From positions 13,771 through 77,770 of the forward strand of contig VHCO01000002.1 of assembly GCA_016871715.1 (NCBI GenBank): a DNA stretch of 64,000 bases, read 5' to 3'. A program made the translations under genes and the position numbers. Below are positions 7,971 to 47,040 of the stretch, in pieces (within the stretch, counting starts at the first letter, position 1; every line of letters begins with the position of its first letter). A model generated the notes under the pieces. The model made no database searches and was not told the origin of the DNA. It saw only the letters and a program-made list of their open reading frames with translations. This stretch comes from Verrucomicrobiota bacterium (GTDB lineage Bacteria > Verrucomicrobiota > Verrucomicrobiia > Limisphaerales > J093).

Positions 7971-8340
7971 GTGTCAACTCTGTCAACTACTATAAACCAG
8001 TTCTGTAATTGTGTCGGCCGCCTGAGCAGGGAGGAGACAGGTGTCCGAGCCGGCGCCCGGCACCGTACGTCAGCCGAGCCAAGAGCCAAGGACTAGGCAA
8101 GGACAAGGGCCGAAGGCAGCAGCATGGCCCTTACCTTCACCCTCACCGCCGCACCGAGGCAGCGGAGCTTTATCGTGTCAACGATTATCATACTGGCGCT
8201 TTGCTTTACACCCCGCGAACGCGAGTAGCCGGCAGAGGCAGGGAGGTCTCGACGGACCTGCAAACAGGCACTGGCACCGTGGGCGAACGGGACCGCGGGC
8301 AGTAAGGCCAGGCCAAGCGCCCCGTGTTGTCAACAATTAG
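7971..8340. repeat. Cluster of four TGTCAAC-core motif copies in an intergenic gap
   Basis: GTGTCAACTC 7971, TGTCAACTACTA 7981, GTGTCAACGATTA 8175, TTGTCAACAATTA 8327. Confidence 0.7.
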
Positions 8341-8373
8341 TATCCTGGTGGGGGACGGACAACCTCAACCGAG

Positions 8374-9858
8374 TCAGGCGCCGCGTTTAAGGCGCTTCAG
8401 TTCGGTCGCCTCGGGCCTGGCCGCATAGTAGTCGTCGAGGGGGTAGCAGCCGCTGATTAGGCCGCCGCGCGGGGCCGTGGTGCAGTCGCTAAAGGTGCGG
8501 CAGAGCAACCGCGGGTTGAGTTGGCCCGTGCGTAAGGTATCGGCAACGATCCCAGGGTAGCTCAAGATCATCCGCCCGATGCCCACCAAATCTGTCCAGC
8601 CCTGGCGCACTACGGCCTGAGCGACCTGCGGCAGATACTCCTGCAAATAGCTGTAAGCCGACCCGAGGACCAGGAGGCCGGCCGGCGCGCGGGCCTTGAG
8701 TTGCCGCACGACATGGATTTGGCGCGCCACTCCCACCAAGGGGTCCTCAGGGGGCTGGTACCCATCGCTGGGGGGGTAGGCAGCAGGGCGTTGGATGTGC
8801 GGGTTGTAGTAGGGGGATCCGGCAGTGAGATTGACGAGCTTCACGCCCAGAGTGGCACACAGTCCGAGGAATCTGTGGGCCTCCGTGAGGTCTGGCTCGA
8901 GGGGATTCTCCGGATTCACGCCGAAGCCGTAACGATACGGGAGGCACGCCCCGAAATCGTCCGGGATCCCGGGACCAGGCTTGCCCGGTTGGGAGCTGGC
9001 TGGGTCGGGTCGGAAGGGTACGAAGTCGAAGGCGCTCAAGCGGACAGCGAGATCGATGGGGTTGCCGCGGGCACGAATGGCCTGCACGATCTCGCGCAGC
9101 AAGCGGGTGCGGTTTTCGAAGGCGCCGCCATACGGCCCGGGGCGCGTGTGGGCGCTGAGGAACTCATGCAACAGGTACCCGTGACAATGCTTGAGGTCGA
9201 CGAAATCGGCGCCTGCCTCCCGAGCCAAATCGGCCGCGGTCGCATAGGCCTGGACCAGGGGCTCCAGTTCGGCATCCGCCAGGACCTGGGTATCGGCGGT
9301 CACACCGAACTTCGCATCCAAAAGGGGGTGGCGGTAGGCGACGCGCGGTTCCATGCGCCGTTTGTCCGTCGGCCGACAAAAGCGGCCCGAGTGCGTGAGC
9401 TGAAAGCCGAGGACGAGGTCGTCCACTGCGCCATGCCGCTCTTGGTGGGTGCGGCGGACCAGGCGGACGAGCTCGACGAAGCCCGGGAGGTTTGGCGCGC
9501 TGAGGACGAGCTGATTGGGATTAGCGCGGCCGTCTGGGCGGACGGCGATGGCCTCGCCGCCGCAGACGAGCTTAGCGCCGCTCTCGCCGAAGCGTTGCCA
9601 GCGTCGGCGGACCTCGTCCGTTACACCTCCGGAAGTCGTGCCATCCCAACCTTCCATGGGCTGAACGGCCCAGCGGTTGCCGAGGCGTTTGCCGTTGATG
9701 AGGACTGGCGGCGCCGGTTGCGCCAACGGGGAGTCCGGAGCGGTGAGGATGCCGTCGTCGCAGGGCAGTTCGAGGCCCAGGGTGACCGTGTGTTGGCGGA
9801 AATCGGCGACGGTCTTGATCGATGGGATGCGGACCAGGGGACGCGGGGGCATGGGCAT
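8374..9858 (-). CDS. NADH:flavin oxidoreductase (Old Yellow Enzyme-like TIM barrel)
   Basis: 494 aa. PMEGWDG, QLTHSGR, DLKHCHGYLLHEFLS, YGGAFENRTRLL and DLVGIGR. Confidence 0.85.
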   Translation of the reverse strand: MPMPPRPLVRIPSIKTVADFRQHTVTLGLELPCDDGILTAPDSPLAQPAPPVLINGKRLGNRWAVQPMEGWDGTTSGGVTDEVRRRWQRFGESGAKLVCGGEAIAVRPDGRANPNQLVLSAPNLPGFVELVRLVRRTHQERHGAVDDLVLGFQLTHSGRFCRPTDKRRMEPRVAYRHPLLDAKFGVTADTQVLADAELEPLVQAYATAADLAREAGADFVDLKHCHGYLLHEFLSAHTRPGPYGGAFENRTRLLREIVQAIRARGNPIDLAVRLSAFDFVPFRPDPASSQPGKPGPGIPDDFGACLPYRYGFGVNPENPLEPDLTEAHRFLGLCATLGVKLVNLTAGSPYYNPHIQRPAAYPPSDGYQPPEDPLVGVARQIHVVRQLKARAPAGLLVLGSAYSYLQEYLPQVAQAVVRQGWTDLVGIGRMILSYPGIVADTLRTGQLNPRLLCRTFSDCTTAPRGGLISGCYPLDDYYAARPEATELKRLKRGA

Positions 9859-9861
9859 AGG

Positions 9862-11292
9862 CTAGGGACGGAAGAACGTGAGGTAAGGCTCCGCGCGCGC
9901 CTCGCGCAGGATCAGCAGGGCAAGTTCGCGCGCGTGGTAGTCGCCCCACATCGAACTCTCGCCATTGGGTACTTTCTGCTTCGGCGCGACGTAGTCCCAG
10001 CCATTGGGCCGGTGATAGACGGAGTGAAGGATGAGTCCTTGGTGCTTGGGGTGAGTCGAGAGGTAAGGTTCGTCGAAGAGGGTGTCGGCGACGGTGAATG
10101 CGGCGAGGCGATAGCGGTTGGCCTCCGAGCGGTGACCTTGGGCGCCAAGATAATTGCCCAGACGCAACAGGCCTTGCGCGGCAATGGCGGCGGCCGAGCT
10201 ATCCACCGGTTCCCAAGCATTGAACGGGTCGGAGGGTTGCGAGGCGTAATCGCCCAGCCGATGGCGGTCGGGCGCCCCGGTATCCCACAGGGGAATCCCG
10301 TCTGCACAGCAGTGGGACAGATAGAACTCCGCTGTAACGCTGGCCGCGCGGAGGAAGGTCTTGCGCGTGGCGGTCGCGCTGAGAGGGTGACGCGCGGGGG
10401 TGCCAACTGATCGCCCGGGCGGTCTGGTGGGCGGGCGGTGGAAGGCGGCGGCCGGGACAGTCTCCAGGAACTCGAGTAGCTCGGCGAAACCGCAGATGGC
10501 CCAGGCCAAACCGCGGGTCCAGGTGCTGAAGGGCGAGTAACCCTGCTGCGAGTTGGGGCAGCGGAACAGGCCGCTGCGCGTGTTGAAGATCGCCTCGTGC
10601 GCGGTTCGGCCGGGCACGTCATAGGCATCGCGCCGCTCGCCGTAGTAGAGGTTGTACCGCGCGGTGTTGAGGCCGTGTTCGACCAGGCGTGCGAGCAGGG
10701 AGATGCGCAGGTCTTGTTCTCCCATCAAGACGTGGCCGAGTTGATGCCCCAAGCCCAACACCCGCAGCGAGCGAACGGTATCCACGAAGAGCGAGTGGGG
10801 GCCGTTGAAGGAGTGGATGAATCCGGTGCCGTCTGCCAGGGTCGTCCAGCGGGCCGCCTGCACAGCGCCACTGACCTTCAAGGCCAACTCGTACCCGTCG
10901 AGCTCGCGGTCGTTGAACCGGAGGCGACCGGCGCGCATCAAGCGCCAGAGGTTGCCGTAGGTCGAGATATTATTGAACCCGTGGTCGTGGACGCCGACGT
11001 GCGAGACATGGGGCGCCATGCGTTCGAGGGTGTGGCGCCGGCCGAGCTCGAGGAAGCGCTCCTCGCCGGTGGCGTCGAACTGCAGCAGGGCCGAGCCGTA
11101 CTGGAATCCTTGGGTCCACTCCGTCCAACCGCGCGAGGTGTAGCGGCCTCGGGCCGTGAAGACGGGCGTCCCGCGCGCAGGCAGCCAGGTCTTCTCGAGG
11201 CTAAGGATCTTCCGGGCCGACAACTCGAAGAGGCGCTCGATTTTCGGGACAAGTTTCCCGGCGGTGAGGTGGGGGAGGAGGCGCAGAGGCAT
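9862..11292 (-). CDS. Glycoside hydrolase family 88-like (unsaturated glucuronyl hydrolase-type) protein
   Basis: 476 aa. WTEWTQGF, HDHGF motif (UGL HDxGF), FVDT, STWTRGLAWA, DSSAAAIAA and WGDY. Confidence 0.8.
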   Translation of the reverse strand: MPLRLLPHLTAGKLVPKIERLFELSARKILSLEKTWLPARGTPVFTARGRYTSRGWTEWTQGFQYGSALLQFDATGEERFLELGRRHTLERMAPHVSHVGVHDHGFNNISTYGNLWRLMRAGRLRFNDRELDGYELALKVSGAVQAARWTTLADGTGFIHSFNGPHSLFVDTVRSLRVLGLGHQLGHVLMGEQDLRISLLARLVEHGLNTARYNLYYGERRDAYDVPGRTAHEAIFNTRSGLFRCPNSQQGYSPFSTWTRGLAWAICGFAELLEFLETVPAAAFHRPPTRPPGRSVGTPARHPLSATATRKTFLRAASVTAEFYLSHCCADGIPLWDTGAPDRHRLGDYASQPSDPFNAWEPVDSSAAAIAAQGLLRLGNYLGAQGHRSEANRYRLAAFTVADTLFDEPYLSTHPKHQGLILHSVYHRPNGWDYVAPKQKVPNGESSMWGDYHARELALLILREARAEPYLTFFRP

Positions 11293-11312
11293 AAGACGTT
11301 GCCGAGCGGTTC

Positions 11313-11331
11313 GAGGGTGAAGGGTGAAGGG
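11313..11331. repeat. Short heptamer tandem repeat (AGGGTGA)n between the SDR and GH88 genes
   Basis: GAGGGTGAAGGGTGAAGGG read directly. Confidence 0.55.
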
Positions 11332-11340
11332 CGCGCGCGC

Positions 11341-12150
11341 CTAGAGCCTCCGCAGGTGGAATCCCCCATCCACATTGAACACCTCGCCGGTACTGAAGGG
11401 GAACCGCTCCTGGACGATGGCGACCACCGCCTGACCGACGTCGGCAGGCGTGCCCCAGCGCGGCATGGGCGTGAGGCCCGAGGCGATGAGGGCGTCGTAC
11501 TTGGCGCGCACCGGCGCGGTCATGTCCGTGTCGATGATGCCGGGTCGGAGCTCGAAGACTTGAATGCCGTCGGCCGCGAGGCGGGCGGCGAACAAGGGGG
11601 TGAGCATGGTCAGGGCCGCTTTGCTCATGCAGTAATCGCCACGGTTGACGGAAGCGGCGTAGGCGCTTATGGACGAGACCGTCACGATCTTAGGGTGGAA
11701 GGGCTCGGCCGCGGCGCCTGCTTGGGCCCGGACGGCTTGCTGCTCGAGCATCCACTGGGCGGCGAGTTGGGTGAGGAAAAAGGGCCCCTTGACGTTCACC
11801 GCTATGAGATGATCGAAGCTCTCCTCGCTCGCGTCGAGCAGGTCGGCCCGGGTCCGGGGCGCGATCCCGGCGTTGTTGACGAGCAGATCCAGCCGGCTGA
11901 ACGTGGACCGGGCCAGGGCGAGCAGTCGCTGGCGGTCGGCTGCGCGACTAATATCCGCCTGGGCCGACACGGCGCGAATGGTGCGGCCCGTTGTCTGGGC
12001 GGCGGCCAGGCAAGCGGCAATGGTCTGGCCGGCTGCCTCTGCATTACCGAGGTAGTTGATCATCACATCGTAGCCAAGCTTGGCCAGTTCGAGCGCGATA
12101 CCGCGCCCGATGCCGCGCGAAGCGCCGGTGATGAGCGCCACAGGGTTCAT
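11341..12150 (-). CDS. Short-chain dehydrogenase/reductase (SDR, FabG-like)
   Basis: 269 aa. TGASRGIG, NNAG, catalytic YCMSK and PGIIDTDM. Confidence 0.92.
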   Translation of the reverse strand: MNPVALITGASRGIGRGIALELAKLGYDVMINYLGNAEAAGQTIAACLAAAQTTGRTIRAVSAQADISRAADRQRLLALARSTFSRLDLLVNNAGIAPRTRADLLDASEESFDHLIAVNVKGPFFLTQLAAQWMLEQQAVRAQAGAAAEPFHPKIVTVSSISAYAASVNRGDYCMSKAALTMLTPLFAARLAADGIQVFELRPGIIDTDMTAPVRAKYDALIASGLTPMPRWGTPADVGQAVVAIVQERFPFSTGEVFNVDGGFHLRRL

Positions 12151-12250
12151 CCGGAGCTCAGTCTACCGGGCGGCTCGGGTTTTGGGAAGCGTTGGCGCGG
12201 TCGAGTCTGAGTTGGCCAACGCGATGCGAGCTTGCTAGCCTGCAGGCGTT

Positions 12251-12769
12251 ATGAGTGCAACAAAACAGCCCAGACAGGCCAAGACCACGAGCCGGCAGCC
12301 CGGCCCATCAGGCAAGGCCTTTCTGCGCGTCGCGCTCGCCCTGGCCGTTCTCGTGCCGATCGCCGCGTTTGTGCTCCTGGACTCCGGACCGCCCACCGCA
12401 AGCCCGACCCGGCCCGAGGCGGCGTCTCCGCCGGGATCGGAGAACGCCGAGGTGGCCAAGCCGCATTTGGGCTTTCTCGAGGGCCGTTGGTACCGGCCGG
12501 ACGGCGGGTACGTTATCGAGCTCCGAGAAGACCAAGCCGCCGGCCGGTGGCAGGCCGCCTACTACAATCCGCAGTCCATCAACGTGTCGCAGGTCCAGGT
12601 CTTCAAGGATGGGCCTGCCACGAAAGTGCTGATCGAGTTGCAGGACGTGAACTATCCCGGGTGCAAGTATGACCTCACCTATATCCCTCAGGAAGATCTG
12701 TTGGCCGGCTCCTACTATCAGGCGGCCCTCGATCAGACGTACGACGTCCAGTTTGTCCGTATGAAGTGA
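12251..12769 (+). CDS. Hypothetical membrane-anchored protein
   Basis: 172 aa. N-terminal hydrophobic helix, then a compact beta-rich domain (GRWYRPDGGY...DVNYPGCKYDLTY); GC3-rich codon usage. Confidence 0.65.
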   Translation: MSATKQPRQAKTTSRQPGPSGKAFLRVALALAVLVPIAAFVLLDSGPPTASPTRPEAASPPGSENAEVAKPHLGFLEGRWYRPDGGYVIELREDQAAGRWQAAYYNPQSINVSQVQVFKDGPATKVLIELQDVNYPGCKYDLTYIPQEDLLAGSYYQAALDQTYDVQFVRMK

Positions 12770-12778
12770 ACCTCGGCT

Positions 12779-14104
12779 TCAGGGCCGAGAGGGCCGCGGG
12801 TCGAGGGTCACCACGCACACCTGGTTGGCCAAACGCTCGGGTGAAGGAATGCGTCGTACAAAGGCGATTTGCCGGCCGTTCGGGGAGAACACGCACGCCT
12901 CGGGCCGGGGCGCTTGGTCGGGGGCCGTCGCTGGGGTCAACCGGTGCGTCTGGCCCGTTTGGGTGTCCGTCACGCACACGCTGCCGTCCATGACATGCGC
13001 AAGGAGTTGCCCGTCTGGGCTCCACGTGAAGGTCGAACCGATGGGCGCGCTGTTACGCGTGAGCTGCACGGGCGGGCCGCCGTTGGGCGAGACGGTCCAG
13101 AGCTGAACGATCCCAGCCTCGTCCCGCATCAGGAACGCAATGCGGCTGCCATCGGGCGCACAACGCAGCCAATGGCGGGGGCCTTGGACACCCGGGTACC
13201 GGCGGTCGGCAGTGTAGGTCAGTCGCCGTTGCGTGACGCCCTTGGGCGGGCGGGGCCGCCACTGCGTGCTCCCCGCTAACGGCCCCTCACCAACCGCCGT
13301 CAGGCCCTCCGGCAAGTCCGCCACAAACACCTCCGTGATCGTCTCCCCGCTGGCCGTGACGACATGCCCTTGGAAGGCGAGCGCGCGTCGTTGCCGCGTG
13401 CCATCTGGCCGCAAGTAACCGCGGGTGCCAATCCAGCCTTCCTCGCAGGCCTTTTTGATCTGGTCGGAACCCGGCTGAGGTCGGGCGGTCGTGTGCGTGA
13501 CGAGCACGGTGAAAAACTCGCCGTCATGGTTCCGTGGGTGATCGCGGTTAACGCGGACGGGGCGTCCGGGCACACTCACACCCACGTTGCGCAAGTTGAT
13601 CTCTTGCTCCGCGGTCTCTTCCCTCATGGAGGCAAGCACGTGGTCCTCGTAGGTGAAGCTCACCCACTCGCCCGCCTGATCCCAGACGTGGACGTGTGAC
13701 CCGCCTCGCAGGGCACCGGCCGTGAAGGGCGGCGTGAGGTCCCGGGCGTCCAGGTTCAAACCCACCCCGGGCCGCGCAACCTCCACGATCACCCCCTGGC
13801 GATGAAACGGGCCGTATTGCCAATCCGGCGTAGGATCCTCTGGGCCAAGAATGAACACCACGCGCTCCTGGCGCGGATGGAACGTGACCACCCCGCAATG
13901 CGCCCCGCGCCGACCCTCGTAGAGCACCCGCACCGCGCCGGTGCGGACCTGCACCATCTCGATGCGGTCGCCGTCGAACACTTCGCCCGCGGGATCGGAT
14001 CGCGTGTCGTAGACGATCCACTCCCCGTCGGGCGACCAGACGCCACTGTTAGTGAGGATGCGACCGCCGGGGCCGCGGGTGACTTGTTGCTCGACAGCGT
14101 TCAT
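12779..14104 (-). CDS. DUF3748/YidR-like TolB-type beta-propeller protein
   Basis: QVTRGPGGRILTNSGVWSPDGEWIVYDTR, GGSHVHVW, KACEEGW and FSPNGRQIAF. Start placed at MNAVEQ (14104); an upstream start adding a signal peptide is possible (ORF open to 14431). Confidence 0.75.
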   Translation of the reverse strand: MNAVEQQVTRGPGGRILTNSGVWSPDGEWIVYDTRSDPAGEVFDGDRIEMVQVRTGAVRVLYEGRRGAHCGVVTFHPRQERVVFILGPEDPTPDWQYGPFHRQGVIVEVARPGVGLNLDARDLTPPFTAGALRGGSHVHVWDQAGEWVSFTYEDHVLASMREETAEQEINLRNVGVSVPGRPVRVNRDHPRNHDGEFFTVLVTHTTARPQPGSDQIKKACEEGWIGTRGYLRPDGTRQRRALAFQGHVVTASGETITEVFVADLPEGLTAVGEGPLAGSTQWRPRPPKGVTQRRLTYTADRRYPGVQGPRHWLRCAPDGSRIAFLMRDEAGIVQLWTVSPNGGPPVQLTRNSAPIGSTFTWSPDGQLLAHVMDGSVCVTDTQTGQTHRLTPATAPDQAPRPEACVFSPNGRQIAFVRRIPSPERLANQVCVVTLDPRPSRP

Positions 14105-14538
14105 ACGATCGGCAGCAAACTGGATCGGTCCAGCGGCCGAGAGGAGCAGCGCGCCGACCAAGGACAACGGCGTCGATAAACCAGCGCTGGCGAAACGCGC
14201 CCAGGAGGACGGCGGCAGCGGCAGACGGCGCGGATGGGCTGGCCGGTTCACAGCGAGGGAGGCTACCACGATCCAGCGATGGCGACGAGCAACTTCCCGA
14301 GCATCACCCGGTTTCACCCAGCTTGCCCTTACCCTCGGTCCGTGGCGAGCCTGGTCATGGTCTTGCCCATCCGCCCCTGAATCTGAGCCTGTCCGGTAAC
14401 CGCTCTCCCTCCCAGGGCCCCGGGGTGACAAGGATGCACTGTGCTTAAAGCCCTGTGGTTAAAGCCGTTGACGCCCCGCCGGCTCTCGACGAGCACCCTC
14501 GCGGCCGCCATGGACTTCCGTCTGTGGGGCTTGGGCTG

Positions 14539-14601
14539 GTGTCAACCATTATTACCCTGGCATAAAGTACTAATGGCGACTTCTACGTGTCAACAATTAA
14601 A
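14539..14601. repeat. Direct pair of GTGTCAACNATTA motifs 48 bp apart
   Basis: GTGTCAACCATTAT at 14539 and GTGTCAACAATTAA at 14587, separated by an AT-rich spacer. Confidence 0.75.
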
Positions 14602-14793
14602 AACCCGGAAGAAAATCGTCATAGTCATGGGGACAGCCTTGGACTGGCGGTTGGCGCCCTGGCGCTCGCGCGGCCGCCAAGGCAAACGCAAAGAGGCTTG
14701 GCAGCGGGCTCGGGTCGGCGCAGCATGCTCGCCACACCGCATTCACATCCACCGCACCCAGCTATGCGAACCGCGCAAACCTTGCGAACCCCG

Positions 14794-15516
14794 ATGAGAC
14801 CCATTCGACCCGCCTCCCCCTTCGCACTGGCCCTCGTATTCCTGTTGGGCTGGACGAGCCACCTGGCTTTACCGGTTCCGTTGAAGGCCGCAGAACCGCT
14901 GTTTCAGGACGATTTCCGCGGCCGACTGGGGGAGGGTTGGTCCTGGATACGGGAGGAGGCCGGGGCATGGCGAGTGACTGAACGCGGGCTCGAGCTGCGA
15001 ATCCTCCCCGGCAATCTGTGGGGCGGGCGCAATAACGCCAAGAACCTCCTGGTGCGCCCGGCGCCCGACACGGCGCAGGGGGAACTGGAGATTGCGGTGA
15101 CCGTCGAGAATCGGCCGACCGGCCAGTACGAACAGGTCGGCTTGGCCTGGTACTACGACGACAGCCACATGGTGAAGTTGGTGCGGGAATTGGTGGATGG
15201 CACCGTGCGCGTCTGCATGGGGCGGGAGCAAGCGGACCGGACGCGGACGCTGGGTTTAGTGCCGGTGGAGGCGCCGTGGTATCGGTTGCGGTTATTGGTG
15301 GCGGGGAACCAGATCCGAGGCCAGTACCGCGCCGCAGGGTCGGAGCAGTGGCTCGAGGCTGGCGCCGCAGACCTGCCGGCGCCTCCGGGTGGCGAGGCCA
15401 AGATCATCCTGCACTCCTACAATGGCCCCGCGGACGCAGAACACTGGGCGAAGCTCACTGAGTTTCGGGTGACGCGCCGGGAGAGGGAGAAGGAAGCAGC
15501 GCGACCTGAGCCCTGA
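14794..15516 (+). CDS. Secreted DUF1349/concanavalin A-like beta-sandwich protein
   Basis: Signal peptide (MRPIRPASPFALALVFLLG...LKAA), then DDFRGRLGEGWSWIRE...YEQVGLAWYYDDSHMVKL. Start 14794 or 14764. Confidence 0.7.
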   Translation: MRPIRPASPFALALVFLLGWTSHLALPVPLKAAEPLFQDDFRGRLGEGWSWIREEAGAWRVTERGLELRILPGNLWGGRNNAKNLLVRPAPDTAQGELEIAVTVENRPTGQYEQVGLAWYYDDSHMVKLVRELVDGTVRVCMGREQADRTRTLGLVPVEAPWYRLRLLVAGNQIRGQYRAAGSEQWLEAGAADLPAPPGGEAKIILHSYNGPADAEHWAKLTEFRVTRREREKEAARPEP

Positions 15517-15533
15517 AACGGGCGGCCGCGGTT

Positions 15534-17339: not shown

Positions 17340-17356
17340 GGCAGGCGGGGAGCGGT

Positions 17357-36716: not shown

Positions 36717-36877
36717 AGGCGCCGGAAAAGTGACCGCACGCGGCGTCCGCGTCAAATACCGCCTGCTGCCCCCTGCTCCAAGCATGCACGTTCCACCTCC
36801 CTCCAAGCCGGGGGCTCGGATTCCCCGCTACAGGCTCCCGGGTCAGAACCAGCGAGTCGACACATGATATGCCGCCC

Positions 36878-36939
36878 TTTTAATAGTTGACACAACACTT
36901 TGGTCAACAACTCTGCGCCAGGTTTTTAATAGTTGACAC
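36878..36939. repeat. Perfect 16-bp direct repeat TTTTAATAGTTGACAC, 46 bp apart
   Basis: Copies at 36878-36893 and 36924-36939; reverse complement of GTGTCAACTATTAAAA. Confidence 0.85.
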
Positions 36940-37068
36940 GACACCCCAAGTCCAATGCGGGGCTAACCGATGCCGCGGCGCGCAAGGACTTCGCGGCCTA
37001 CCGGCCGGGTTGCCGTCCGGTCGCGGTTTGGAAACCGGCACGGGTGCTGGCGCCGACGCGGCTGTGGC

Positions 37069-40000: not shown

Positions 40001-43000
40001 ACCGGGTGGACAGTGCCGCCGCGGCGTTCGACGGTGACGGCGACGATGCGGGCGTATTCGTCGACGAGGTACGTGCTCGAGGCGAATTGGACATCGCAAT
40101 CGTCCTCGACGATGAGCAAGCCGGCGGTGGACTGCGTGCCGAGCATGGCGCTGCCGGTGACGTTGGTGAGGGAGAGGGCCACCAACTCGTTGGTCTCGAT
40201 GATCGTGTCGTTGAGGATTCGGAGGCGGAAGGTGATATTCGTCACGCCCGGCGAGAAAATCAGCGTCACGTTGGTCGCCACAAAGTCCAGACCGTCGGTG
40301 GCGCTGCCGTTGGTTGCCAACAGATCGACCCGGACGAGGTTGGTGATCACGCCGAGGCGGCGGACCTGGAGCCAAGCCAGGCTGACATGCTCGTTGACCC
40401 GGAACAGGGGCTCGGCGAACTCGACCGCGCTGTCGTCATCGAGGATGCTCAAGACCGTCGTGGTCTGCCCACCCAGCGGCGCGCCGCCCGGACCACTCTG
40501 CAAGGTCAAGTTCACCGTCTCCGTGGGCTCGACGATCTGATCGTCCACCAGGGTGACCTCGATTTCCTTGAGGATCTCGCCCTTGAGGAAAGTGAGGGTG
40601 CCGTTGGTGGCAAGGAAGTCGGCGGTGGGCGTGGCGGTGCCACCCGTGACGGCATACTGCACCGTGACCGCCACGTTGGTGCTGCCGGTGCGACGGACGG
40701 GGATACGCCTGAATCCCGCGTTCTCGGCCACCGAATAGGCCGTAGCGGGGAACTCGACGGTCCCGTCGTTGTCGATGATGTTGACGGTCACGGCGCGCGG
40801 GGCACCGATGGTGGCGCCCGGGGCGCCGATGAGGGTGAGGGTGACCGACTCCATAAACTCGGCGGCGGGATCGTCGACGGGGATCACTGCAATCTGGATC
40901 TCGTCCACGCCCACGGGGAAGGTGAAGTCGAAGGGAATCGGCTCGAAATCGCTCCCCATGGTGGCGGACCCGGTAATGTCCAGCTTAACGGCCTGGGTGC
41001 GGTTCGTTGCGCCGGCGCGCTTGAGCAACAGGACGCCCGGTACGGATTTCTCCTCTTCCGCCGTCGTGTTCACGGCCACGAGGGTGACCACGGCGGCGTC
41101 GTCGTCCTTGATGGTGAGAGTGTGAGACTTGTAGACGTCGAAGTAGGCATTCATCGGGGTGCCGATGATGACCTGGTTGGTCACGACTTCATTGGTTTGC
41201 TCGGGTTCACCCGCGGCGTTGGTGATGGTGATGTCGTTGGTGACGACGTAATTGCTGATGAAATAGAACGGCTCGATCAGCGTCAGCACCACGCTGCGGT
41301 CCGGCTGCAGCAGGTCGTTGGTCATGATCGGGAAGACCAACAACTGGGTACGGTTGGTCATCGCGTTCCGGCCCCCGCTCGGGTTGTGCGGGAAGACTAA
41401 CCGACCCGTCGAGGTGTTGTACGGGTAGTCGACCTCGGGCAGGGCACTGCCCCCGGTGACTTTGTAGTCTACCGTCACGTCGTTGTCCTCGGCCGGATTG
41501 GCGCTGACCGAGACGGCCACCAGGGCGGCGCCGGCGCTCTCGATGACCGTCGAGGAGAGGAAGTTGAAGCCAACGCCCGGGACATTGCTTCCGTCGTCGT
41601 CGTCGACGTTAATCCGGGCCTGGAATTGCGGGCCGATGTTGTACTCGGCGCTGGGCAAGATCTCGAGAACTGCGTACTCGACATCTTCGCGAAGCCGGTC
41701 GTTGATCGGGAAGAGCGTCAGGAGAACCCGGGCTTGGCCGGGCGGGATCCGCACCTGAGTGCCGATCCCGGCGTAGTCGCCCAGTTCCTTGGCCGTACCG
41801 CCCATGCGAATCTTGACGAGCAGTTCCTGAGTCAGATCCCCCACGCGCGAGATCTCGAACTCGCCGTTGTCCGAAGGTTCAGCCGCATCGGCATCGGTCG
41901 CGATGACGCGAACGGTGGGCAAACCTTTCTCCTGGATGAAGACGGTGGCGGCGCCCGGCGAACCCACGTTATAGAGGGTGCTGTCGGAGAGGAAAGCCAC
42001 GACCGTCTTGGTGCCTTCCTTGAGCATATTATCTCGCGGGACGACCGTGAACGTGGCCGAGGGTTGGCCGGCGGCGATGGTCACCGTGCCCGGCAGCGCG
42101 CGATAGTCTAGACCGCTGATGGCCGTGCCCGTGACGAGGTAGTTCACGACCAAGGGCCGAGCCATATCCCCGCTGCGGGTGACCTCGAAGACACCGTCGT
42201 CGCCGCCCGCCTCGAGCGCCACCGCATCGATGGCCGCCAGGGTGACTGTCGGCAGGTCGTTATCCAGGATGGTGACCTCTGCGGTGCCGGTGCCCACGCG
42301 GTAAAGGTCATTGGTCAGGACCGTCACCACCACCTTCTCGTGGCCCTCGAGGTAGGCATCCGGCCGCGCTACCAACGGGAGCAGGGCGAGGGTCTCGTTA
42401 GCCCGCAGCGTCACCCGCCGCGGCATGGGTTCGTAATCCGAGCCGTACTCGGCCGTACCGCCGTAGCTCAACTCGACGTCCACGCTGGGGCCTTTGTCTC
42501 CCGCGCGCGTGATGACGAAGAGCGCCGAGTCGTTCGGGTTTTCCGAGGTGGCCTTATCCAGGGCCAGGATCGAGATGATCGGCTGGGTGGCGGGTTGGGC
42601 ACGCAAGAGGATATTGGTCTCGGCCGCGTAGCCGGGGATGTAATCGTTCTGGCGTTGGAACCAGGTGTCTTGACCTTTGACGGCGCGGACCTCCCAACCG
42701 GTGAAGTTGACCCAGTTGGTGTTCGTGACCGTGGTGGTGCCGTCGCTTGAATTGGTCAGTTCCAACCGCATCGCCTGAAGCGGATACATGACCGTCAACC
42801 GGACTTGCCTGTCGTTGGTGGGGGCGGCCCCCGTGGGCGGTGCGATGGTGATGTTGGTGGTGACCGCTCCGGTTGCGAAGGTGACCTGGTAGAACTTGTA
42901 GACGGCGGTGTTGGCGCCGAAGGGGGTCTGGACCGTATTGGTGTGGTTGACGGTGTTGGTGTAGTCCATGTAGTCCCGACCCGCACTGGCATCGCCGCCC

Positions 43001-45666
43001 AGCAAGAACACGGCCGTTAGTTCCCGATTCGTGTCCCCGGTGCGGCGCAGCACGAAGCCACCCGGCGTCTTGGCCACTAAATCCACGTCCTTGTCCTTCT
43101 CGACGGTCACCTTGGGCAGCGGCGTGGCCAAGAACAACACGTTGTCCGCGCCCTGATTCCCCAAGGTCACCGGCAACTCGAAGTTGAACGGGACAATGTC
43201 GTACCCGTTGAGGAACGCTCCGATGGGATGGCCGCCCGCAGGCAGGCCCACGAGGGTATAGGCCCCGTCGCTATCGGTGTAAGTCCACCCGTAGTTGTCG
43301 GCCAGGTCGAACGTGTTGGTTAGCGCGCCATTCGAGATGCGCACGTCGCGCAGCGGTTGGCCGGTGTCCGCAATCACGCGTCCGCTGATGGTGAGGGTGG
43401 TGGGATTGCCCACACGCACCACCAGGTGCTTGCTGGTCATCCCCCCCTTCCGATCGCTGACCTCGCAGCGCACGACATAATCCCCCGCCTGCGTCCAGAT
43501 CTTGCCAGTCGTCGGGGCGTTCGGGGCGAAGGTGCCGTCGCCAAAATCCCAGAAGTAAGCTAACTCGTCTCGGTCCGGATCGGTGCTCTGCGCGGTCAGA
43601 GTCACGGGTGTGCCTGCGGTGGTGCGGTTGGTCGAAGCCGTCAACTGAACGACGGGCGGGGAATTGCCCGGGAAGGGCCCGCGGTTGATGACCACGTCGT
43701 AGTAAAGGTCGCCGCCAGCACCTCCCTTGGCGACCGGCGTAATGTGCACCTCCGCCTCGCGATCGCTAAAGGTGCGGCCGAGGATGAGGGGCGCGTCGTC
43801 CCGGCCCGGCTTCGAGTCGGGCGTGGTATCGAGGAGGTCGCTGTAGCCGAGGCACTGCTGCCAGGCGCCCCACCGCAACTCGACGCCGTTGCGCATCCAC
43901 GGCGTGTCAATCCGACTGCGCACGCTGACCCAGTAACGTCGCAGCGCGTCCTTCTCGGTGGTCATCGCGTAAGCCCGGTTGGTATCCAGGCGGGGCACGT
44001 CGAACGCGTAAATGCGGCTGGTTTGGCTGTGCCGCGCGTCGAGGATATAGGCATTCGGGAGCCAGCCCAGGCGGTTCTTGCCGACGGGGTTGAAGTGGCC
44101 CGTGGCCGCCGAGATGGTCTGACTGCTCGCCCGCGGGTCTTCCCCACCGCCACTGCCCATGATGTCGAAGATGTCGCCATACTCCAGGTCGTCGCCCACT
44201 CCGATGACCGTCTCGTGGCCCACCACGCTGTCCGGGTCGAAGGGGAGGTTGTTCGGGTTGGGCGGGAAGGTGGGCCGGCGCGTATCCCAAAAGTTGGCGT
44301 GGGCAAGCCCGTAATTGTGCCCTAACTCATGAATCACTAGCCCCACCCCGTCGTACTGCAACCAGGCCGTGCCGCCCCCCCCCAAACCACCCCAGTCGAA
44401 CCCAGGCACGGTCGTGTGGCGGATCACGAAGAGGTCGTAGTTCTTGCGGTTGTAACCCACGAGCACGGCGGCCGCCGCTGCGTCACCCGCCAAGGCGCCA
44501 GGCCCCGCAAACGAATAGTACAACTTCGGATGCGGCAACGACACCAGCGGTGCAATGGTCGACATCAGGGCCGTCTTGTTATACGAGGCTTCCACGTAGT
44601 AATCGTTGACCCGTTGCATCGTGTCCGCCGCCGCGGACTCGCTGGTCGGCACCGTGATGTCGTCCGGGAAGATCACCCGCACATACAAGACCTTCTTCGT
44701 CCCCAGACTGTTGATCGGGTTGGCGGGCGGCGGGTTGGTGCCGGTCGTCCCGACTGTCCCCGGCGCAGGCGCGCCCAACAGCGCCCGCGTGTCTTCCGCC
44801 TTTATCAAGGTGGCGCTCAGTTCGCCGAAGTGTGCGCCCGAGCAAAAGGCCAACAGGTCACCCCCAAAATCCGCCCAAACCGTGTCCGCCGTCGCTTCCG
44901 GCACACCGCCACACACGCCGCACCGCGGGGCTGCCGCGCCCTCCGCGGGCCAACTGGCCTTCGCCTCTTCCGGGGCAATCTCGCGCAGCAACTCCTCGTG
45001 CAACGCCATCGCTTGATCGATCGCGATGCCGTGCAACGGCACATCTTTCTGCGACATCTGCGGCACGCGCCGACCGTACACGTAGGCACGGTAGGTCTGC
45101 CGATCCAACGTCACGTACCGAACCGTTCGCCCAGCCGTATGCCGGTGCTCCGGTCCGGGCACGGGCTGCGCGCAATACACCTCCAGATCGCCCCGCCCGC
45201 TCACCACCGTCTCCAACAAAGCCCTAATCTCGGATGGCAACTGCTGGCGCCACCGCCAAGGCACGGTCCGCGTTAGCGCCTCGCGCGGGTTAGTCCGAAT
45301 CTCCTCCGCCAACGCCGCCCGGCGCTCCTCCGCTAAACGCACCCCTTCCGCTAAGGCAGGTCCCCCCCCGCCCCAAACCCGGGCTCGCAGAAAGGCCTCG
45401 GTCCACCGAGCGAAGTCAGCATGAACCGACTCCGGAGCACGCGGTGCGCTCGCCTCCGCGGGGGCCGCCGCAGCCGGCGGCGCCTCCAAACGCTGTGCTG
45501 AATCGACCGTTAGGAGACTGAACGGGGCAACCGCCGGGGCCAGTAGTGAGGGCGGCACGACCGCGGCCGCTTGAGATGGCGGAGAGGGTCGGTCCATCCG
45601 CTGCTGCAACCAGAACAATAAAGCGAGAGCGGCTAACCCTCCGAAAAACCACTTCAGCATTTTCAT
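37069..45666 (-). CDS. Giant (2865 aa) secreted metzincin (M11/gametolysin-like) protease with PKD, Calx-beta, delta-60-type propeller, B-repeat-like and C-terminal domains
   Basis: N-terminal anchor/signal; HELGHNYGLAH zinc motif and EYGDIFDIMG Met-turn; PKD (WDFGDG); many Calx-beta units (V.V.R.G...V.Y.T.DGTA.AG.DY); QPDGKILVGG.F...RLNPDG.LD repeats. Confidence 0.88.
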   Translation of the reverse strand: MKMLKWFFGGLAALALLFWLQQRMDRPSPPSQAAAVVPPSLLAPAVAPFSLLTVDSAQRLEAPPAAAAPAEASAPRAPESVHADFARWTEAFLRARVWGGGGPALAEGVRLAEERRAALAEEIRTNPREALTRTVPWRWRQQLPSEIRALLETVVSGRGDLEVYCAQPVPGPEHRHTAGRTVRYVTLDRQTYRAYVYGRRVPQMSQKDVPLHGIAIDQAMALHEELLREIAPEEAKASWPAEGAAAPRCGVCGGVPEATADTVWADFGGDLLAFCSGAHFGELSATLIKAEDTRALLGAPAPGTVGTTGTNPPPANPINSLGTKKVLYVRVIFPDDITVPTSESAAADTMQRVNDYYVEASYNKTALMSTIAPLVSLPHPKLYYSFAGPGALAGDAAAAAVLVGYNRKNYDLFVIRHTTVPGFDWGGLGGGGTAWLQYDGVGLVIHELGHNYGLAHANFWDTRRPTFPPNPNNLPFDPDSVVGHETVIGVGDDLEYGDIFDIMGSGGGEDPRASSQTISAATGHFNPVGKNRLGWLPNAYILDARHSQTSRIYAFDVPRLDTNRAYAMTTEKDALRRYWVSVRSRIDTPWMRNGVELRWGAWQQCLGYSDLLDTTPDSKPGRDDAPLILGRTFSDREAEVHITPVAKGGAGGDLYYDVVINRGPFPGNSPPVVQLTASTNRTTAGTPVTLTAQSTDPDRDELAYFWDFGDGTFAPNAPTTGKIWTQAGDYVVRCEVSDRKGGMTSKHLVVRVGNPTTLTISGRVIADTGQPLRDVRISNGALTNTFDLADNYGWTYTDSDGAYTLVGLPAGGHPIGAFLNGYDIVPFNFELPVTLGNQGADNVLFLATPLPKVTVEKDKDVDLVAKTPGGFVLRRTGDTNRELTAVFLLGGDASAGRDYMDYTNTVNHTNTVQTPFGANTAVYKFYQVTFATGAVTTNITIAPPTGAAPTNDRQVRLTVMYPLQAMRLELTNSSDGTTTVTNTNWVNFTGWEVRAVKGQDTWFQRQNDYIPGYAAETNILLRAQPATQPIISILALDKATSENPNDSALFVITRAGDKGPSVDVELSYGGTAEYGSDYEPMPRRVTLRANETLALLPLVARPDAYLEGHEKVVVTVLTNDLYRVGTGTAEVTILDNDLPTVTLAAIDAVALEAGGDDGVFEVTRSGDMARPLVVNYLVTGTAISGLDYRALPGTVTIAAGQPSATFTVVPRDNMLKEGTKTVVAFLSDSTLYNVGSPGAATVFIQEKGLPTVRVIATDADAAEPSDNGEFEISRVGDLTQELLVKIRMGGTAKELGDYAGIGTQVRIPPGQARVLLTLFPINDRLREDVEYAVLEILPSAEYNIGPQFQARINVDDDDGSNVPGVGFNFLSSTVIESAGAALVAVSVSANPAEDNDVTVDYKVTGGSALPEVDYPYNTSTGRLVFPHNPSGGRNAMTNRTQLLVFPIMTNDLLQPDRSVVLTLIEPFYFISNYVVTNDITITNAAGEPEQTNEVVTNQVIIGTPMNAYFDVYKSHTLTIKDDDAAVVTLVAVNTTAEEEKSVPGVLLLKRAGATNRTQAVKLDITGSATMGSDFEPIPFDFTFPVGVDEIQIAVIPVDDPAAEFMESVTLTLIGAPGATIGAPRAVTVNIIDNDGTVEFPATAYSVAENAGFRRIPVRRTGSTNVAVTVQYAVTGGTATPTADFLATNGTLTFLKGEILKEIEVTLVDDQIVEPTETVNLTLQSGPGGAPLGGQTTTVLSILDDDSAVEFAEPLFRVNEHVSLAWLQVRRLGVITNLVRVDLLATNGSATDGLDFVATNVTLIFSPGVTNITFRLRILNDTIIETNELVALSLTNVTGSAMLGTQSTAGLLIVEDDCDVQFASSTYLVDEYARIVAVTVERRGGTVHPVDADFASSNLTAIAGKDYLSARGTVSFTGETTVPSPTVPGTVILQPGETNRVLEFRILDDVIGEGNEDFLVALTNARTAATVPAGTVTLGLQTNTVVTIVDNETPGSVDYEFNVGQGPDAPVRSVGVQPDRKIVFGGDFAKVNDVFLSRIARVHEDGYLDSFFNPGAGASAAVLAIAVQPDSRLLVGGNFTQFNGVPANRILRLNADGTADAGFRPGAGADGAVRAIAVAPDGKVVLGGDFNTVAGQGRSGVALLAVDGTLDAAFNPNASGGVLALAAQPDGKILVGGGFTTIAGAQRQRLARLNPDGTLDASFNTDTGPDGPVQAIAVDGLGRILIGGSFNVFNGVDRKRVARLNPDGSLDTAFDPGSGANDVVLGLGVQPDGKVIVGGAFTNFADNARNRLVRLNPNGTIDTGFDIGSGANGIIRALAVQPDTAIVIGGDFTQFKGLPRRYLARIHGDEKFVLNTIQFASAFFRVKENTNEATLTVLRSGDLQLAASVDYATSDGTATAGADYTPATGRLDFAAGETEKTFKVKILDDQLAEGDETVNLVLTNLPLGFALTGTHAAVLTIEDDESAIAFASASYSANENAGVASILVRRSGPSAGTVSVDFSTRDGTAKTGQDYTAVTANLQFVAGETEKTVDLPILDDTDTEEDETVLLELRNAVGAAVLGSQTNAVLTIVDNDRVEFYSLIFTPPFGGSVTPVAGPYPAGSTQVLTASADRDYRFVGWEGTTNSAANPLSVFMDRNYTLTAKFLPTFFVHTFEAPFTSANLAAAPWVNSTTAPWTVQSEVTASGKGALRSGPTSHGEVSALELAVDTRAGAVTFDVRVSSEQGHDWLEFYVNGVQLQRWSGDVPWRNYQFNLAAGRHRLLWRYRKDNNFSAGLDAGFIDNIYLPLDVPDPTPAAAQLTLTIASSGASRIQLTGKVGLRYVLEASPNLQTWTPIATNVLNTTSVIILDQQALNFTQRYYRAVTP

Positions 45667-46045
45667 GAAAATCAGTTCTGTCCGCGGATCTTACCGGTGC
45701 CCTTACAGGCCTGTAAATGCATTTGTCAGCCAGCCCCATGCGTTCCGAGTCCCAAGCAAGGAAGGAGCACGAACGGCCACGTCCGCCATGCGGTTCTGGC
45801 AACCCGCGCCCCACAAGGCGCACGCAAGTTCTCGCCCAGGACCGCAGCCGACAGGGCCCTCGACGAGCATTCCGGCATCCGTCTCCAGCCCCGCACCCTG
45901 AGCCGGCCTGACGCCCCACCCGCCCCCTGACTGCTGCCCGCGCCCAAACCGGAACGGGAAGGGCGACGTTGGATAATAGCAGGGTACGGGCCAGGTCTCG
46001 CGGATCCTTCCCGCCCACCAACTCACCGCGCCTGGCGGCCAGGGC

Positions 46046-46660
46046 TCAGTCGGCGTCTCCCCGCCGCCATTCGATACCGTCCAAATCTAATGCTCGCTCG
46101 ACCTGTCGGGCTGTAACCGATCGCGGGCCCTCGGTCCAGATCACGCGATGCGCCAGGTCCAGCTTCCGCTCGATGGGCCATTGCGCCTGGATGCGTTGCC
46201 GGCATTCCTCGTGGGACCACCCCCGCTCCGCCAACCGCGCCTCTTGGGTCGCGGCGCTGCAAGCCACGCAAAAGATGGTGTCGAACTCCCTCTCCGCCCC
46301 CGTCTCGAACAGCAGCGGAATGACCACCACCCCAGCAGGTTCGCCGGCCCCCCGCCACCGCACCACGACCTCCCCCCAACGCTCGCGAATCCTAGGATGC
46401 AGGATCGCCTCGAGCCGCCCCCGGGCGATCGCGTCGGCAAACACCAACCGCGCCAACTCCGACCGCCGCAGTTGCCCCTCAGCATCGAGCACGCTGGGGC
46501 CAAAGACCCGGGCGATCTCGGCCAACGCAGGTTGCCCCGGGGCGACTGCCTCGTGCGCCAAAGCGTCCGTGTCCACCACCGGCAATCCACGTGCCTGGCA
46601 GCATTTCGCCACGGTGGTTTTTCCCATCCCAACACCGCCCGTTAAACTTATGAGTTTCAT
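46046..46660 (-). CDS. coaE: Dephospho-CoA kinase
   Basis: MKLISLTGGVGMGKTT P-loop, DTDALAH, LEAILHPRI, IPLLFE and RIQAQWP. Confidence 0.95.
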   Translation of the reverse strand: MKLISLTGGVGMGKTTVAKCCQARGLPVVDTDALAHEAVAPGQPALAEIARVFGPSVLDAEGQLRRSELARLVFADAIARGRLEAILHPRIRERWGEVVVRWRGAGEPAGVVVIPLLFETGAEREFDTIFCVACSAATQEARLAERGWSHEECRQRIQAQWPIERKLDLAHRVIWTEGPRSVTARQVERALDLDGIEWRRGDAD

Positions 46661-46765
46661 CTGGGGCACCATCGAGCATGAACGACTCCGGACTTAACCA
46701 GCGCCAGCCACGCCCTGTCCACCCCGATTCCTCGGCCAACCCACGCCCCTCCCTTTGCTCCTATT

Positions 46766-47040
46766 GTGTCAATTATTAATGCCCTGTCACTCTACCCCTA
46801 CCCATACCCACCCACCCCTTCACCTTCACCCCACCCCACCGCCACCACTACCGCAGCAAGGCACGGTAGACCGGATGGCGATGGGGAGTGTCCTGTCAAC
46901 TATTATTGCTCTGTCACGTAGTGTTCGCAGGGGGCCGCCAGGGGCGGTTTGCTGGAACTCTGCGCTACCCTAAACCCCTACCCCTGACCCTTACCCTACC
47001 GCAGCAGGGCGCGGTAGAGCCGGACGGGGAGGGTGGCGGC
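46766..47040. repeat. Degenerate tandem duplication with TGTCAA motif, C-rich (G4-like on minus strand) tract and copy of the adjacent gene end
   Basis: 25-mers at 46766 and 46893 match 21/25. CTACCGCAGCAAGGCACGGTAG (46848) resembles the gene terminus CTACCGCAGCAGGGCGCGGTAG (46996). Confidence 0.7.

Follow-up and report, generated by a model that had tools for sequence, protein, structure and literature searches.

The dispersed intergenic motif of this verrucomicrobial genome is probably (we put the chance near 0.62) a genus-specific, non-palindromic repeat of 28-32 bp and the cognate flanking module of a family of about 70 RAYT/TIRYT-like Y1 HUH genes, a counterpart of REP and TIR sequences without their hairpin. 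As a flanking and promoter module of the Y1 family it would constitute a REP-like system without hairpins, and the best reading of the motif family is thus a new hairpin-less form of Y1-linked REP/TIR-like repeats.

Sequence and distribution of the repeat

The window, that is, the whole 64-kb stretch of DNA that was analysed, contained nine matches to GTGTCAACNATTA with at most one mismatch, whereas 0.05 were expected from shuffles. A one-mismatch hit at 44600 lies inside a gene for a 2757-aa protein, fails the PWM and is probably due to chance. Full PWM sites also numbered nine, with T1 at 7981, 8176, 8328, 14540 and 14588 on the forward strand, at 36892 and 36938 on the reverse strand, and at 46767 and 46894 on the forward strand. 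All nine are solo copies, located away from Y1 genes. The list of about ten copies in the preliminary description agreed with these sites to within 1-3 nt in nine cases; its entry at 7971 is only a partial duplication of 10 bp. The copies and associated features are as follows.

7971-7980, forward strand: partial 10-bp duplication of the core, with TGTCAAC at 7972-7978; abuts the full copy at 7981; no PWM hit
7981-8008, forward strand: solo repeat copy, ACTA variant, first in cluster A; PWM 37.4 bits
8176-8203, forward strand: solo repeat copy, cluster A, exact 13-mer; PWM 28.7 bits
8328-8355, forward strand: solo repeat copy, cluster A, second half degenerate; PWM 17.1 bits
14540-14567, forward strand: solo repeat copy, cluster B, between divergent genes; PWM 38.0 bits
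14588-14615, forward strand: solo repeat copy, cluster B, 48 bp beyond the copy at 14540; PWM 37.3 bits
36911-36938, reverse strand: solo repeat copy, cluster C; PWM 35.4 bits
36865-36892, reverse strand: solo repeat copy, cluster C, 46 bp beyond the copy at 36911-36938; PWM 29.5 bits
36902-36929, forward strand: weak partial match in inverted orientation (GGTCAAC...), overlapping cluster C; PWM 13.9 bits, sub-threshold
46767-46794, forward strand: solo repeat copy, cluster D unit 1; PWM 28.9 bits
46848-46870, forward strand: hairpin CTACCGCAGCAAGGCACGGTAGA at the end of cluster D unit 1, following a C-rich tract
46894-46921, forward strand: solo repeat copy, cluster D unit 2, 127 bp beyond unit 1; PWM 30.9 bits
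46996-47018, forward strand: second copy of the CTACCGCAGCAAGGCACGGTAGA hairpin, at the end of cluster D unit 2

The cluster D hairpin has only four related copies genome-wide and is therefore regarded as a local tandem duplication. Contigs of the same species from other samples were 99.99-100% identical to the window, and metagenome relatives of a neighbouring gene (at most 66% identical) were devoid of the motif.

A genome-wide PWM scan, as proposed in the preliminary description, recovered 511 sites of at least 16 bits, compared with 1-5 in the reversed genome, a control in which local AT-rich patches are preserved. Over 8.58 Mb, 73 exact occurrences of the 12-mer TGTCAACNATTA were counted, while base composition predicts about 0.5. 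The intergenic placement seen in the window held for 494 of the 511 sites (~97%, with gene positions taken from our own crude gene caller), and around 440 copies are solo.

The 13-base motif proved to be the core of a 28-base non-palindromic repeat, longer than initially noted, with a conserved block of about 28-32 bp that reads sTGTCAAC-W-A(T/C)TA-WAAA-CC-T-G-K-C-A-N-A-T-T-G. In solo copies conservation is limited to positions 0 to ~32, which makes them sharply bounded units. The AT-rich context noted earlier is produced by the motif, whose positions 1-20 have an AT content of 63%; within ~40 bp the value falls back to the 35-38% of the background. The upstream extension GTGTY.TGTCAAC exists as first described, but only 37 of 510 sites carry it. 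The core GTCAA (positions 2-6) and G20 are invariant, while the other positions drift; in a core-blind scan with 486 hits (48 in the control), TGTCAA was found 382 times, CGTCAA 18 times and GGTCAA five times. Such an invariant core amid drift indicates a constraint on a putative protein-binding site. Flanks at different loci share only the motif and neighbouring motif copies, and a MITE or longer mobile unit was rejected.

Copies less than 300 bp apart have the same orientation in 187 of 189 pairs genome-wide, which extends the uniform orientation observed within the window clusters. The 48- and 46-bp spacings of the two close pairs were given correctly and fall within a peak at 45-50 bp seen across the genome (26 pairs), although spacings are heterogeneous overall (37, 47, 78 and 100-130 bp). 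The bodies between tandem copies have detectable homology in only ~24% of pairs when judged against a length-matched control. The orientation of solo copies towards neighbouring genes is biased at most weakly: TTGACA points to the neighbouring gene start in 122 of 200 clusters away from Y1 genes (binomial p = 0.002), 34 clusters sit between convergent genes, and the median distance from a solo copy to a gene start is ~240 bp.

Association with Y1 transposase genes

The genome contains about 65-73 intact, diverged copies of a gene for a 385-aa Y1 HUH protein of the RAYT/TIRYT-like type, represented by 64 N-termini and 73 C-termini without internal stops; most copies are truncated at contig ends, and tblastn revealed no extra gene fragments. 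The proteins match PF01797, and the RAYT model NF047646 below threshold. They bear HFH at residue 59 and YIDLN at residue 170, a HuH-to-Y distance of ~110 aa, and their predicted fold resembles E. coli TnpA_REP (4ER8, TM 0.71) as well as the ISDra2 and IS608 transposases. The copies share ~80% amino-acid identity with a dS of 0.38 and a dN/dS of 0.24, and the C-terminal domain is conserved (dN/dS 0.16).

The motif was present in divergent orientation upstream of 64 of 66 Y1 gene starts, at a modal distance of 34-36 bp; each of these genes bears one or two copies upstream of its ATG that face away from the gene. In Y1 pairs with 95-97% identity over the first 150 coding bases, the motif alone constitutes the common upstream sequence. 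The search for copies beside transposase genes was thus productive, and the initial suggestion of a transposase site or of element-family ends went in the right direction, given these gene starts and the sister genera's own versions of the repeat. The TTGACA noted earlier on the opposite strand is indeed present; it acts as a predicted -35 box at Y1 genes only, where the predicted promoter reads TTGACA-N17-TAACCT-N8-ATG; a -10 box at 17 bp from TTGACA is confined to these genes. This promoter ends ~8 nt before the ATG, and the Y1 mRNA therefore looks leaderless.

On the 3' side of the Y1 genes no consistent motif was found (eight copies in the same and nine in the opposite orientation among 73), nor was there a conserved sequence or right end after the stop codon, so that the repeat occupies the 5' side only. 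Neither target duplications nor terminal inverted repeats were visible at Y1 units. Solo copies possess no -10 box or leader and tblastn added no fragments, and their interpretation as relics of deleted Y1 genes was rejected. The preliminary description had also considered insertion or excision footprints. Y1 elements are not known to leave such footprints, and the sharp boundaries and selected core of the solo copies also lend this reading no support.

A REP-like hairpin was ruled out by two approaches. Single-stranded DNA folding of the consensus and the window copies yielded no hairpin (z-scores -0.6 to +1.3), and mutual information revealed no Watson-Crick or long-range covariation among 510 copies.

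The motif was absent from 32 other genomes of the family, except for Y1-linked copies in genus g2. In this genus TGTCAATAATTAYGAACC is present in 5-8 copies per genome, at Y1 genes where checked. The repeated unit starts at the outer end of the motif in 8 of 8 loci read; the two loci that extend far enough go on to a Y1 gene, while most other contigs stop within ~110 bp of the motif. The motif is unlikely to be an insertion target of Y1 elements, because it forms the start of the repeated unit in all g2 loci read, and this unit continues into the leader and gene of Y1 wherever the contig is long enough. In genus g11 the repeat reads CAAATATC-GTGTCTGTCACTC-TATTTG (201 and 26 copies) and folds as a hairpin with z-scores of -8 to -10; it occurs upstream and downstream of Y1 genes, there as direct repeats, and in solo tandem arrays. 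In two further genera, boxes of the GTGACAG or GGGACAG type precede the Y1 genes. The repeat sequence hence shifts between genera in step with the Y1 lineage.

Alternative explanations

A self-contained promoter, read from TGTCAAC to ATTG and driving hundreds of small non-coding RNAs, is a rather unlikely explanation. It would consist of a -35-like GTGTCA, a 16-bp spacer, an extended -10 (TGn) and CATATT, and tandem clusters would be sibling sRNA genes. Consistent with this layout, every conserved position falls within one compact AT-rich block, and the AT content decays with an enrichment of A near position 34, the expected start site. Orientation independent of flanking genes, including the 34 clusters between convergent genes, the common unit lengths of 100-130 bp and a downstream strand with more G than C would also fit, and cluster D resembles two units, each composed of motif, C-rich tract and hairpin. 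However, A23 and T27 occur together in only 30% of sites and TATAAT is matched at four or more of six positions in only 25%, while the invariant GTCAA and G20 are not the bases most conserved in a sigma-70 -10 box. A downstream T-run or common terminator is absent, the g11 version of the repeat shows no promoter-like layout, and a simple sigma-70 scan of cluster A misses the motif. In addition, the window is without Rfam hits and the motif stands at no fixed distance before tRNA genes. A known RNA family (the window also contains no tRNA or tmRNA) and a housekeeping or tRNA promoter were rejected on the same observations; sigma-54 or ECF-type spacing was a poor fit, judged by eye.

An operator of a host global regulator, or the recognition site of an alternative sigma factor, would make the Y1 genes mere members of a regulon. 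This was among the initial proposals and, for a regulator unrelated to Y1 genes, it is now the less likely account; we consider it improbable. In favour of this role, a fixed core between drifting flanks is typical of a binding site, the 18-bp separation of two TGNCA half-sites could accommodate a dimeric or tandem-binding protein, and GTCAAC-N12-GKCA may loosely resemble SigB/SigF-type promoters. Against such a role, the relation of the motif to genes in orientation and distance is weak at most, with the same 34 clusters between convergent genes. Moreover, the absence of the motif from the 32 other genomes, save for the Y1-linked g2 copies, and the change of the repeat by genus along with the Y1 lineage are at odds with a regulator independent of Y1.

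The repeat might alternatively be a portable half-promoter, in which an outward UP-like AT tract and a TTGACA -35 box form a hybrid promoter wherever a -10 box happens to lie ~17 bp away. This geometry is in use at 64 of 66 Y1 genes, and the orientation of TTGACA towards the neighbouring gene start in the 122 of 200 non-Y1 clusters (p = 0.002) agrees with it. Yet the sigma-70 spacing of -35 and -10 is present in the TTGACA direction at Y1 genes, whereas only 0-1% of solo copies have a -10 hexamer, compared with 1.2% of random intergenic positions, and the gene start is a median of ~240 bp away. As an explanation of the repeat, the half-promoter is very unlikely. That the solo copies are ordinary promoters was not supported either, with -10 boxes not above chance in the TTGACA direction and weak in the other (the 25% at four or more of six positions).

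A chance feature of AT-rich intergenic DNA is refuted by the counts of 511 against 1-5 in the composition-preserving control, and a CRISPR-like mini-array, suggested earlier by the repeat-spacer-repeat look of the 46-48-bp pairs, is hardly credible with such heterogeneous spacings and with two tested spacers that match no phage or plasmid.

Relation to known systems and proposed mechanism

The flanking module of the Y1 family has several described counterparts. TIRtrons with their TIRYT genes (Di Nocera et al. 2013, PMC3733652) roughly correspond to TnpA_REP subclass 2.1 (Quentin et al. 2018, PMC6006769). Common to them and the present system are long Y1 proteins of the RAYT-like type that have HuH and Tyr motifs and are extended at the C-terminus, and flanking repeats other than REPs that form moderately abundant dispersed families, single, as dimers or in clusters (PMC3733652). 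Their box GGGGWSAS resembles the GTGACAG and GGGACAG boxes of the relatives, where GTGACAGG, GTGACAGAC or GGGACAGAC are candidate versions; the likeness to ATG(A/C)CAGG in this genome's repeat (ATGMCAGG) is weaker, with 5 of 8 positions matching. In contrast to TIRtrons, the repeat lies on the 5' side only, without terminal inverted repeats around the gene, and also supplies the gene's -35. Gene copies number ~70 here versus 1-3 there, and the ~510 repeat copies are nearly always in direct tandem.

TnpA_Y1 subclass 2.3 is likewise multicopy within a genome with low identity between copies, and comprises the longest family members (median 325 aa, PMC6006769; homologues here ~322 aa). The HuH-to-Y distance of ~110 aa, the core insertions and the long C-terminal tail also agree. 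Homologues of the protein, carried by other genomes, number more than 3,700. For this subclass, flanking REP-like secondary structures were not found and an associated dispersed repeat was not reported (Quentin et al. 2018, PMC6006769); the present genome similarly lacks flanking hairpins and has more than five diverged copies. Unlike subclass 2.3, which is found mainly in Chromatiales and Alteromonadales (PMC6006769), this genome belongs to the Verrucomicrobia and has an evident dispersed repeat, and the likeness was assessed by the traits published for the subclass.

REP/REPIN-RAYT systems or REPtrons (Nunvar 2010, PMC2817692; Bertels and Rainey 2011, PMC3116915; Ton-Hoang 2012, PMC3333891; structure 4ER8) similarly combine hundreds of short, lineage-specific intergenic repeats of 20-40 bp with a Y1 HUH gene linked to each family and adjoined by the repeat, and show long-term persistence under purifying selection. 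The repeat described here, by contrast, is not palindromic, bears neither a GTAG nor a CGTC tag, and forms direct pairs (the 187 of 189) instead of inverted REPINs or BIMEs. While a REPtron RAYT is single-copy and flanked on both sides, ~65-73 gene copies are present here with the repeat on one side. With IS200/IS605 elements the family shares the Y1 HUH transposase fold, a minimal gene-only unit, the multicopy state and the lack of visible target duplications and inverted terminal repeats. However, the copies are old (dS 0.38, ~80% amino-acid identity) and not near-identical, and the genome shows neither subterminal hairpins nor a conserved right end past the stop codon.

We propose that Y1 enzymes generated the solo copies from the gene-end module, or assisted in this, and that the copies would increase locally through tandem duplication. 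Y1 proteins may still bind the solo copies, possibly via the conserved C-terminal domain and on double-stranded DNA, as the repeat offers no hairpin. The outward-facing TTGACA of solo copies could serve as a portable -35, and most copies would not be complete promoters. To our knowledge, the targets of all Y1 enzymes studied to date are single-strand hairpins. A bolder scenario, which we hold to be speculative and doubtful, is that a hairpin-type Y1 repeat became a hairpin-less double-strand site, and that ~70 maintained Y1 paralogues with C-terminal DNA-binding tails and ~510 sites form a genome-wide protein-site network and not a conventional single-strand 'peel-and-paste' transposon system. 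If so, the network might be regulatory, architectural or a supply of portable -35 elements, and it would represent a new way for HUH-Y1 enzymes to recognise their targets, as well as the bulk domestication of a transposase family.

Although REP/TIR repeats and Y1 enzymes rank among the commonest elements in bacterial genomes, understanding of them is still poor. The relatives provide a natural series within one gene family, from 5-8 copies in g2 and ~200 hairpin copies in g11 to ~510 hairpin-less copies in this genome, which opens to test what Y1 recognition needs, how the repeats spread and whether the -35 rewires the expression of neighbouring genes. The Y1 family and its repeat also explain many contig breaks in the assembly; 114 of the 511 repeat sites lie at most 700 bp from a contig end.

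Extent, number and placement of the repeat

The short motif in the window proved to be real: GTGTCAACNATTA was found nine times with at most one mismatch, as compared to an expectation of 0.05. In the whole draft assembly (8.58 Mb, 65% GC, 554 contigs), the 12-mer TGTCAACNATTA was counted 73 times versus about 0.5 predicted from base composition. The motif of the preliminary description was present but too short, as the alignment of copies extended the consensus to sTGTCAAC-W-A(T/C)TA-WAAA-CC-T-G-K-C-A-N-A-T-T-G. An iterated position-weight matrix (PWM) identified 511 sites at ≥16 bits in the genome and 1-5 in the control, the reversed but not complemented genome in which local AT-rich patches are preserved. 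The matrix was trained on its own hits; this circularity was addressed by split-PWM scans, with part of the motif masked. Nine of the 511 sites fall in the window, where 3.8 per 64 kb are predicted from the genome-wide density. The copy formerly listed at 7971 is not a full one and represents a 10-bp partial duplication of the core.

Repeat sites in the window identified by PWM (position of the first T of TGTCAAC, T1)
7981, plus strand, repeat of cluster A
8176, plus strand, repeat of cluster A
8328, plus strand, repeat of cluster A
14540, plus strand, repeat of cluster B
14588, plus strand, repeat of cluster B
36892, minus strand, repeat of cluster C
36938, minus strand, repeat of cluster C
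46767, plus strand, repeat of cluster D
46894, plus strand, repeat of cluster D

Cluster C also contains a weak inverted partial copy (TGGTCAACAACTC...) at 36902-36929 on the plus strand, which overlaps both minus-strand repeats; this inverted arrangement is among the very few seen. Contigs of the same species from four JGI samples and two SRA runs were 99.99-100% identical to the window.

Gene calls were made with a self-trained ORF caller (5,623 genes, 83% coding); by these calls, which are crude and miss small genes, 494 of the 511 sites are intergenic. Sites less than 300 bp apart shared their orientation in 187 of 189 cases, with spacing peaks at ~37, 45-50, ~78 and 100-130 bp, and the clusters comprised 150 singles, 127 pairs, 29 triples and 5 quadruples. 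When clusters adjoining genes of the Y1 transposase family were left out, the orientation relative to flanking genes was near random. The remaining clusters lie in divergent (62), two kinds of tandem (60 and 44) and convergent (34) regions, in rough keeping with how much intergenic DNA falls into each category. On both sides of the clusters, the distances to genes were symmetric and set solely by the type of neighbour, about 250 bp for a gene start and 120 bp for a gene end. The sole orientation bias was modest: in 122 of the 200 clusters, TTGACA faced a gene start (p = 0.002).

Fixed geometry of the repeat at Y1 transposase genes

Many repeat copies are located near contig ends, adjoining the start of one repeated open reading frame. 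The encoded 385-aa protein belongs to the Y1 transposase superfamily (Y1_Tnp domain PF01797, E = 7e-11), matches the REP-associated tyrosine transposase model below threshold and carries the motifs HFH at residue 59 and YIDLN at residue 170. Structural matches to its AlphaFold model (mean pLDDT 71) were E. coli TnpA_REP in complex with a REP hairpin (4ER8; TM 0.71, rmsd 4.2 Å) and the ISDra2, IS608 and IS200 transposases. The C-terminal ~110 residues are conserved (dN/dS 0.16) and had no fold assignment. Between this domain and the Y1 core, at residues ~215-300, sits a low-complexity Gly/Ala/Glu-rich linker of ~65 aa (dN/dS 0.65, pLDDT <50) that is missing from the ~322-aa homologues of other Verrucomicrobiae. 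Searches with tblastn recovered 64 N-termini and 73 C-termini in the genome, mostly cut by contig ends, and none of these copies contained an internal stop. The 14 full-length copies showed a dS of 0.38 and a dN/dS of 0.24; the family consists of old paralogues under purifying selection and is not a recent IS burst.

Among the 66 gene starts with enough upstream sequence, 64 had a motif no more than 150 bp upstream, oriented away from the gene, and T1 was 34-36 bp from the ATG in most of them. Read in the direction of the gene, the layout is CAATATG(C/A)CAGGTAAATAATnG-TTGACA-N17(16-18)-TAACCT-about 8 nt-ATG, so that the motif would supply the -35 box and the AT-rich upstream tract. As the ATG follows ~8 nt past the -10 box and no Shine-Dalgarno sequence was present at the Y1 genes of this genome (e.g. 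C221:10641, C110:21492), the mRNAs of these paralogues are probably leaderless or nearly so. In contrast, the homologous genes of the sister genus g11 have a 130-nt leader with AAGGAGG. Conservation among the gene copies does not extend past the motif's outer end upstream or past the stop codon downstream. Gene pairs with 95-97% identity over the first 150 coding bases had the motif alone in common upstream, which argues that it is held by function and not by recent common descent.

One of the only two gene starts lacking the motif upstream belongs to a divergent second Y1 lineage (C105:1564-2532), ~50% identical to the main family. At positions 1-260 of a same-species JGI contig (3300020083; L129), which is 99.4% identical to contig C349 of the genome, the 3' end of an IS1595/ISXO2-like transposase ORF immediately precedes a complete Y1 gene. 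This gene lacks the usual TTGACA motif but has kept the TAACCT -10 box, and its counterpart in the genome is truncated by a contig end.

Copies away from Y1 genes

In the 438 solo copies, information was limited to positions 0 to ~32, with no conserved sequence on either side, and beyond the motif nothing was common to copies at different loci. A -10 box in the TTGACA direction occurred in 0-1% of solo copies versus 1.2% in random intergenic DNA and was thus not in excess. In the opposite direction, an embedded TGn-CATATT was weak: A23 and T27 occurred together in 30% of sites, and 25% matched TATAAT at ≥4/6 positions. There were no T-runs downstream of the repeats, no Rfam family in the window and no fixed relation of the motif to tRNA genes.

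The core is constrained. Of 486 hits in a scan with positions 7-29 only (control, 48 hits), 382 had TGTCAA, 18 CGTCAA and 5 GGTCAA, and in a first-half-only scan, 421 of 445 hits had G at position 20. Since GTCAA and G20 are essentially invariant while the remaining positions vary freely, the pattern is that of a putative binding site and not of decaying relics. The repeat does not fold into a hairpin (ssDNA z-scores -0.6 to +1.3), and mutual information gave neighbour effects only, without long-range covariation. One possible reading of the motif is a pair of direct TGNCA...ATT half-sites spaced 18 bp apart.

The bodies between tandem copies were detectably homologous in ~24% of pairs, as exemplified by cluster D, in which each of two units comprises the motif, a C-rich tract and the hairpin CTACCGCAGCARGGCRCGGTAGA. 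The C-rich tracts at 46795-47018 are CCCTACC-like repeats followed by this hairpin; similar tracts precede site 8176 and several Y1 genes on other contigs.

Related genomes and known systems

The repeat expansion was absent from the 32 other genomes available for this family and from 12 genomes of the order's other families. Several of these relatives carry homologous Y1 genes in multiple copies, and each lineage has its own version of the repeat. In the sister genus g2, where each genome has 5-8 copies, the version is TGTCAATAATTAYGAACC. All eight loci read have a repeated unit that starts with the motif's outer end; where the sequence is long enough, at two loci, it continues into the leader and a Y1 reading frame. 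This indicates that the motif moves together with the gene and is more than a target site. Most other g2 contigs stop within ~110 bp of the motif, and one locus (L018) holds the motif and a ~40-nt leader with no Y1 gene after it.

The gene-adjacent repeat of g11 differs (CAAATATC-GTGTCTGTCACTC-TATTTG) and folds strongly into a hairpin (-6 kcal/mol, z -8 to -10). It was counted 201 times in genome G010 and 26 times in G016, with none in the controls. It occurs upstream of the Y1 gene, in solo tandem arrays elsewhere and, in G010, as 126-127-bp tandem pairs of the same orientation ~280 bp downstream of the gene (e.g. L115-L128). In two further genera, the Y1 genes are preceded by GGTGACAGAC or by CAGGGACAGAC in tandem. 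What is shared is a GTGACAG-type box, corresponding to positions 17-24 of the window motif. At two loci of the sister genus g10 (L009 and L015, genome G009), each Y1 gene follows three direct copies of CAGGGACAGAC(A/C)ATGAAATC in tandem, and the g10 box resembles the GGGGWSAS motif reported for TIRYT repeats.

We propose that the repeat is a binding site of the Y1 proteins, perhaps recognised in double-stranded form via the conserved tail. The solo copies may have been seeded by these proteins, and the clusters would have been enlarged by tandem duplication.

The system resembles REP/RAYT in copy number, intergenic position, lineage specificity and Y1 partner. However, REPs are palindromes, usually in inverted pairs around a single-copy gene (PMC2817692, PMC3116915, PMC3333891). 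TIRtrons are closer: TIRYT proteins are long and RAYT-like, and the flanking repeats are non-REP, bear a GGGGWSAS box and in some cases occur as dispersed families, although they are terminal inverted repeats around 1-3 genes (PMC3733652). Judged on features only, the closest fit for the Y1 protein is subclass 2.3 of Quentin et al. (PMC6006769), described as multicopy, of low within-genome identity and ~325 aa long, with ~110 aa from HuH to Y. The repeat and its genes are best regarded as a hairpin-less variant of Y1-associated repeat systems. It is distinguished by repeats that are direct and tandem, lie on one side of the gene and double as its predicted -35 box, and it is set apart from those systems by an unusually large gene family.
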